A DNA stretch of 64,000 nt. It comes from Escherichia coli (GTDB lineage Bacteria > Pseudomonadota > Gammaproteobacteria > Enterobacterales > Enterobacteriaceae). Made by a program: the position numbers and the translations under genes. The stretch lies in the NCBI RefSeq assembly GCF_003018255.1, contig NZ_CP027440.1. One strand, written 5' to 3'. The notes beneath the pieces are model-generated. The model was not told the DNA's origin, searched no databases, and saw nothing but the letters and a program-made list of their open reading frames with translations. Positions 48,264 to 48,509 of the stretch are shown in pieces; the stretch's first letter is position 1; every line of letters starts with the position of its first letter.

Positions 48264-48509
48264 GGTAACCGTCCCTCTCGAAGGATGTTTTTCAGTATCC
48301 GGCTAAAAGGGATGAGGCCATAAGACATAACAATTACAGAAGGAGTAACTTTCATTTGTTCCATGTTAACCACTTTTTCAGGGGTCCTTTTTTTAGATTA
48401 TCCTGATTATAAACGAATAATCCATTTACGGAATTTTTGTCTGCAAAATACTACTGTATTCAGGAGTAAATGGACGGCGATGTATCATCGCCGTCCATTT
48501 TTCGACATA

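Follow-up and report, generated by a model that had tools for sequence, protein, structure and literature searches.

A conserved hairpin past the nlpC stop codon of Escherichia coli, a probable leaky terminator between nlpC and ydiV

Organization of the nlpC-ydiV region

The window (the whole stretch of 64,000 nucleotides of Escherichia coli DNA that was analysed) includes the open reading frames of selO, ydiV/rflP, nlpC, btuD and btuE, all of which are located on the minus strand around the hairpin described here (Table 1). Coordinates in this part of the window are converted to those of K-12 MG1655 by addition of 1,743,757, MG1655 nlpC being located at 1792267-1792731. The spacer between nlpC and ydiV is 246 nt in length with a G+C content of 38% (42% for ydiV), and does not differ from that of MG1655 at any position. 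In the MG1655 RefSeq record, no feature is annotated between rflP and nlpC, nor is a plus-strand gene annotated between selO and nlpC. The region from 48200 to 48600 was matched in 5,420 of the 5,426 complete E. coli genomes, at a median of one place per genome.

Table 1. Position of the nlpC hairpin, of the genes and sites around it, and of two terminators used for comparison (window coordinates)
Feature	Position	Strand	Description
selO	46051-47487	minus	ORF
ydiV/rflP	47550-48263	minus	ORF; anti-FlhDC factor, next gene downstream of nlpC
nlpC	48510-48974	minus	ORF; NlpC/P60 lipoprotein of 154 aa; TAG stop at 48510-48512
btuD	49053-49802	minus	ORF
Perfect stem-loop	48468-48500	minus	Read as nlpC-sense RNA hairpin; 13-bp G+C-rich core plus AAA/TTT
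Left arm	48470-48482		ATGGACGGCGATG; 13 bp, perfect stem with right arm
Loop	48483-48485		TAT; 3 nt
Right arm	48486-48498		CATCGCCGTCCAT; 13 bp, perfect stem with left arm
nlpC-strand tail after hairpin	48460-48469	minus	5'-TTACTCCTGA; weak interrupted U-tract
Between nlpC stop and 13-bp stem	48499-48509	minus	5'-TATGTCGAAAA on nlpC strand; 11 nt
Promoter-like site	48392-48421	plus	TTTAGA-18-AATAAT; 9/12 matches
TATAAT	48406-48411	minus	Perfect match on ydiV strand
Upstream ORF	48260-48355	minus	31 codons; longer in-frame starts at 48364 and 48373
Small scan-called hairpin with T-run	48270-48287	plus	Antisense to ydiV/rflP leader
ORF from ATG within hairpin	48470-48589	plus	39 aa; taken as chance, antisense to nlpC
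ORF over hairpin	48363-48563	plus	66 aa; taken as chance, antisense to nlpC
lpp terminator	13914-13942		Perfect short-loop hairpin
ihfA terminator	51460-51484		Perfect short-loop hairpin

Stability and uniqueness of the hairpin

Read along the nlpC strand, the stem opens 9-11 nt past the TAG stop, and the flanking A/T pairs lengthen the perfect stem from 13 to 15 bp (48468-48482 paired with 48486-48500). The 29-nt core folds with -22.3 kcal/mol on both strands, and the z scores against 200 dinucleotide shuffles, of which none was equally stable, were -6.5 and, for the minus strand, -7.5. It is the longest perfect inverted repeat with a short loop in the entire window; when the window was shuffled 100 times with its dinucleotides preserved, the longest perfect stems had 8 to 12 bp, as compared with the 15 bp observed. 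The initial description of this site as a strong palindrome situated immediately after the nlpC stop codon was thus borne out, the perfect 13-bp stem being far beyond the level of chance. A G+C-rich dyad of 13-15 bp with a spacer of 3 nt, located just past a stop codon, has the typical form of a terminator.

In about 5,415-5,420 E. coli genomes, the hairpin was found at a median of one and at most two copies. Membership in the REP/BIME class or a similar family of repeated palindromes was considered and rejected because the sequence is single-copy. A search of positions 47000-50000 against Rfam 15 gave best matches of 17-23 bits, all far under the gathering scores. Two plus-strand open reading frames, one starting from the ATG within the hairpin, were set aside as chance frames (Table 1).

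Flanking T-runs on the two strands

The sequence-only reading also held that the better T-tract lies on the strand opposite to nlpC. Past the 13-bp stem, the plus strand reads TTTTCG (48499-48504), making T5 together with the last T of the stem, and the minus strand reads TTACTCC, or UUUAC once the last U of the stem is counted (T3). As scored by a TransTermHP-style tail function, the plus tail (UUUUU-CGA including the last stem U) gave -3.36 and the minus tail in the nlpC-sense orientation (UUUAC-UCC, with 4 T in 8 and a longest run of 3) gave -2.88, in agreement with that claim (TTTTT-CG vs TTT-AC). The 8-nt RNA:DNA hybrid, estimated with nearest-neighbour energies, is likewise weaker on the plus strand (-4.9 vs -6.4 kcal/mol), and the plus-strand RNA is slightly more stable both as an extended fold of 66 nt (-28.5 vs -27.0 kcal/mol) and as the best hairpin closed by a G-C pair (-25.1 vs -19.6 kcal/mol).

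These differences would fit a functional two-way terminator, in which the hairpin not only ends nlpC transcripts but, with the U5 of the plus-strand RNA, stops antisense or pervasive transcription out of the AT-rich ydiV and spacer region before it enters nlpC-btuCED. The low G+C content of the spacer and of ydiV points in the same direction, spurious promoters being common in DNA of such AT-rich composition. Hairpin-encoding bidirectional terminators, which could act on both strands, are described for E. coli (Ju et al. 2019, as summarised in a preprint); the members of this SEnd-seq class lie between convergent genes whose 3' ends overlap, whereas nlpC and ydiV are co-directional and no opposing transcript is known at this locus. 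The consensus terminator scan made no call at the nlpC hairpin in either orientation, since the minus tail and the plus tail both fall short of the 5 T in 8 that its rule demands.

The only other perfect short-loop hairpins in the window, those of lpp and ihfA, are matched by the flanking sequences of two 3' ends in the curated Term-seq data, and the fact that both are terminators was counted in favour of a terminator at nlpC as well. Like the nlpC hairpin, these intrinsic terminators have a G+C-rich stem free of mismatches and a short loop past a stop codon, and upstream A's together with downstream T's make both strands look terminator-like in all three cases. The nlpC hairpin differs from them in its longer and more stable stem (core of -19.6 kcal/mol vs -13.0 for lpp and -10.4 for ihfA), in its much weaker U-tract on both strands (the gene strands of lpp and ihfA both score -5.81), in its slightly better tail on the non-coding side, and in that no mapped 3' end was found for it. 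On their opposite strands, lpp and ihfA, whose next genes are also co-directional, score -4.74 and -4.88, respectively, and so outscore both sides of the nlpC hairpin. A fair T-run on the opposite side is hence the normal by-product of the A-run found ahead of many terminators, and validated one-way terminators of the same window carry opposite-strand T-runs equal to or better than the one used to argue for a two-way function.

The plus-strand T-run TTTT-CG is the complement of the A-run within the 11 nt that separate the nlpC stop from the stem. The plus strand of the spacer contains five T-runs of at least 5 (the minus strand has two runs of 4), so that the T5 beside the hairpin is not special; the five runs simply reflect the A-rich leader RNA of ydiV. 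Since both tails are weak, since lpp and ihfA have equally good runs on the strand opposite to the gene and since the spacer has five of them, the asymmetry of the T-runs carries little weight.

The same scan called small hairpins with T-runs antisense to the ydiV/rflP leader, one in the E. coli window (Table 1) and others at the Salmonella locus (2090-2105 and 2161-2174). These are probably due to the A-runs of the leader RNA and not to real terminators.

Conservation of the stem within Escherichia

Over 76 nt, the sequence is identical in 3,608 of 5,415 E. coli genomes. Across six distinct Escherichia sequences, 88.6% of the stem cells pair, as compared with 31-63% when the partner columns were slid. 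Changes on both arms that keep the stem paired were observed: an A-U pair is replaced by G-C in E. albertii; the pair 26-38 exists as C-G, U·G and U-A, the change from C-G to U-A being present in clade strains and in E69; and a compensatory allele with G-C changed to U-A on both arms is carried in identical form by 141 E. coli genomes. Intermediates with U·G at the pair 36-48 on the nlpC-sense RNA were detected in 21 E. coli genomes, in Escherichia sp. MOD1-EC7003 and in E. albertii, and two further sense-strand G·U pairs occur in the clade strains (L003-L005). The U·G allele (C to U) of the sense RNA corresponds to a C·A mismatch on plus-strand RNA. E. albertii (C·A) and MOD1-EC7003 (A·C) each carry a mismatch of the converse type, which would wobble-pair on plus-strand RNA, and one stem position is unpaired in CE10 (C·U) and in O157-type strains (U·C). 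The maintenance of the stem through changes on both arms and through wobble pairs of the sense strand was counted in favour of a hairpin acting as nlpC-sense RNA.

A palindrome acting at the level of DNA and with no role in RNA, either as a site for a dimeric protein or as a neutral quasi-palindrome generated by template switching, would share the perfect dyad symmetry. Paired changes in DNA palindromes can arise by template-switch mutation without selection on RNA, and the both-arm changes seen here could have this origin; in addition, polymorphism at the sampled stem positions of E. coli is no lower than in the flanks. Against such a reading, wobble G·U pairing is tolerated and often seen on the sense strand, and unrelated hairpins are located at the same place past the nlpC stop in different genera (see below), which fits an RNA structure and not a conserved protein site. 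With these points taken together, a purely DNA-level palindrome is considered very improbable.

The flanking T-runs are not conserved in Escherichia on either strand. The nlpC-strand tail is TTTTCTTCT in E. albertii, TTTTACTTCT in E69, TTTACTCCT in E. coli and TGTTAACTCC in the clade strains, and the corresponding plus-strand run is T3 (TTTCC), T4, T5 and TTTATT, respectively. In E. albertii and E69 the better T-run thus lies on the nlpC strand, which was counted for the nlpC-sense reading given the basal position of these two; the loss of the plus T-run in E. albertii and its interruption in the clade strains speak against a two-way terminator. What is conserved is the hairpin, and the basal species carry the better tail on the nlpC side.

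In one E. coli genome (CAVP776), the homology to the window breaks off shortly before the nlpC stop, at a place where the annotation shows no gene, which suggests a rearrangement or insertion that removes or disrupts nlpC.

Comparison across Enterobacteriaceae

A total of 29 nlpC loci were collected from species-representative genomes, and seven more, from Salmonella, Enterobacter, Atlantibacter, Kosakonia, Lelliottia, Pluralibacter and Kluyvera, were added by protein look-ups. Nearly all Escherichia and Citrobacter have a strong hairpin directly 3' of the nlpC stop, as do Enterobacter, Kluyvera, Lelliottia, Buttiauxella and Pluralibacter; its sequence is unrelated from genus to genus. Good T-runs on the nlpC strand follow the hairpin in C. 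youngae (TTTTAAAT), Kluyvera (CTTTTCTTTT), Lelliottia (CGTTTTT) and K. indica (TTTTT). In E. albertii, E69 and C. youngae, too, the consensus scan made no terminator call at the homologous hairpin.

The two strands were compared, treating both alike, at the 30 loci with a hairpin of -10 kcal/mol or below. The sense RNA is the more stable one at 18 loci and the antisense RNA at nine (equal at three), and the T-richer 8-nt tail lies on the sense side at 18 loci and on the antisense side at seven (five ties). Because the loci are not phylogenetically independent, many of them being from Citrobacter, and because E. coli itself is among the exceptions, these counts are supportive of the nlpC-sense orientation and not decisive.

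In MOD1-EC7003 (about 3005-3130), ydiV is deleted from right after the hairpin to roughly its last 60 nt, so that nlpC and the retained hairpin, in which one pair is U·G and another an A·C mismatch, are followed almost directly by selO; that the hairpin stays with nlpC in spite of the loss of ydiV was counted for the nlpC-sense reading. In Salmonella, no comparable hairpin was found after nlpC. Comparison of Salmonella enterica (1966-2050) with window positions 48440-48509 indicated that the hairpin is replaced by about 65 nt of a different AT-rich sequence including TTGAAC...TATATAAT, the remaining spacer being homologous to that of E. coli. The consensus promoter scan made no call at this TTGAAC...TATATAAT site.

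Search for a plus-strand transcript

The sequence-only reading had further raised the possibility that the hairpin forms the 3' end of an unannotated plus-strand transcript. Such a transcript would be a discrete small RNA of about 75 nt, starting near 48428 and ending at the T-run 48499-48502. The sole plus-strand promoter-like site of the spacer lies at the right distance for this start (Table 1), and a hairpin followed by U5 resembles the terminator of a small RNA. The promoter-like site, however, is a 9/12 match of a kind that is equally frequent in shuffled sequences (four found vs 4.0 expected), leaving a two-way terminator, too, with a plus-strand promoter at the level of chance only. 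Moreover, the site overlaps the perfect TATAAT on the ydiV strand, which can explain its apparent conservation. No Rfam family and no MG1655 annotation corresponds to the proposed RNA, and its U-run of only 5 is not conserved in the genus.

The curated Term-seq data of Adams et al. (2021) cover three growth conditions with 882-1,175 dominant ends per condition. No 3' end is listed there at MG1655 17922xx on either strand, nlpC has no entry, and neither a plus-strand nor an antisense-ydiV 3' end or Rho region is included. Since the list holds only dominant ends, this absence around the hairpin is a weak negative and refutes neither strand; in this curated list, the check proposed together with the sequence-only reading returned no end on either side. 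The negative is somewhat stronger against an abundant small RNA, because small-RNA ends such as that of rydB stand out in the list, and no orphan end appears at 17922xx in the three conditions. The accessible supplement text for TRS and SMRT-Cappable-seq mentions neither nlpC nor the hairpin coordinates, and a literature search for nlpC with ydiV and terminator, or with sRNA and Hfq, yielded nothing relevant.

With no upstream plus-strand gene, a promoter at the chance level and a T-run that is not conserved in Escherichia, the proposed end of a plus-strand transcript was not upheld, and a discrete small RNA of this kind is regarded as highly improbable. The wider proposal of a plus-strand product, namely an RNA of about 75 nt (about 48428-48503) antisense to the beginning of the ydiV leader on nlpC read-through RNA, or else of a two-way terminator shielding nlpC-btuCED, is hardly more credible and is judged improbable. 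Of the bidirectional idea, the terminator-type hairpin and the slightly better plus tail are supported, and the plus-strand function is not. No positive evidence was found for a genuinely two-way role, which would be compatible with a terminator acting on the nlpC strand; we hold it to be unlikely.

Transcript ends in ydiV and expression of ydiV

Within ydiV, Adams et al. (2021) reported a Rho-dependent 3' end on the minus strand 85 nt into the gene (MG1655 1791935; window 48178) and, deeper in the gene, a bicyclomycin-sensitive Rho region (MG1655 1791758; window about 48001). Together, this end and this region suggest premature termination within ydiV.

For Salmonella, the literature describes a regulatory link between nlpC and rflP. 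It also reports that the nlpC promoter, which is repressed by FliZ, drives ydiV in part, and that nlpC insertions are polar on rflP. A start of rflP was located by 5'-RACE at -230, near nlpC and in a region that E. coli lacks, and this position falls within the AT-rich stretch that replaces the hairpin. Expression of ydiV from the nlpC promoter in the organism without the hairpin was counted in favour of an insulating role of the hairpin in Escherichia. Expression of ydiV/rflP is reported to differ between E. coli and Salmonella, and the presence of the hairpin in Escherichia, Citrobacter and others, together with its absence from Salmonella, makes it a candidate for part of this difference.

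A probable leaky terminator on the nlpC strand

The reading that best accounts for these observations, to which we give a probability of about 0.65, is that the nlpC-sense RNA hairpin serves as a leaky intrinsic terminator and as a block to 3'-exonucleases, and thereby partly insulates ydiV from nlpC/btu transcription in Escherichia. RNA polymerase that has started at the nlpC promoter, or that arrives by read-through from btuCED, would transcribe the stem-loop of 13-15 bp just past the nlpC stop. Intrinsic termination at this point would be partial, a partial effect being probable because only UUUAC follows the stem. For transcripts ended at the hairpin, or trimmed back to it from downstream ends, the stem may then act as a shield against 3'-exonucleases. 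Polymerases that do not stop would continue into the ydiV/rflP leader, so that the hairpin would act as both leaky terminator and insulator. In this scheme the plus-strand T5 would be the complement of the sense-strand A-run in an A-rich leader, and no sign of a plus-strand gene. Against this preferred reading stand the poor sense tail (-2.88 vs -5.81 for lpp and ihfA), the lack of a scan call and the lack of a mapped 3' end.

The protective part of the proposal has its counterpart in stabiliser hairpins that block 3'-exonucleases. Stems of this kind are reportedly places to which Rho-terminated transcripts get trimmed back (Dar and Sorek 2018). The nlpC hairpin resembles stabiliser hairpins in its very stable stem without a proper U-tract and in the co-directional genes around it, and resembles the trimmed-back stems in having Rho-dependent ends downstream, inside ydiV. 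It differs in that no 3' end is reported at the nlpC stem, and its stabilising effect is putative. The hairpin itself is an ordinary terminator-type element; its context is ydiV/rflP and hence the control of motility through an anti-FlhDC factor.

Other features of the nlpC-ydiV spacer

The perfect TATAAT on the ydiV strand precedes the ATG of ydiV by about 143-148 nt and has no good -35 sequence. It is kept in most Escherichia and in Salmonella, and is changed to TATACT in the clade strains L003-L005.

An upstream ORF of 31 codons (MKVTPSVIVMSYGLIPFSRILKNILREGRLP in E. coli; Table 1) precedes ydiV, and its TGA stop overlaps the ydiV ATG (ATGA). The 31-codon arrangement is common to Escherichia, Citrobacter, Enterobacter, Kosakonia, Lelliottia and Kluyvera, and the shared features are a start with MK, a ribosome-binding motif resembling AAGGA or GGGAA, and the stop overlapping the ydiV/rflP start; in Salmonella the frame has 30 codons and the overlap is TAATG. 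The frame is not annotated in MG1655, and the name in the protein collection is only "hypothetical protein". The peptides are strongly diverged and the frame is lost in E. albertii, and the third codon positions are only mildly more variable than the others (9/11/14 and 7/8/12 variable sites). The upstream ORF may be a translationally coupled leader with relevance to the reported poor translation of ydiV in E. coli, and this conserved frame at the ydiV start is possibly a more useful lead on the regulation of ydiV than the hairpin.
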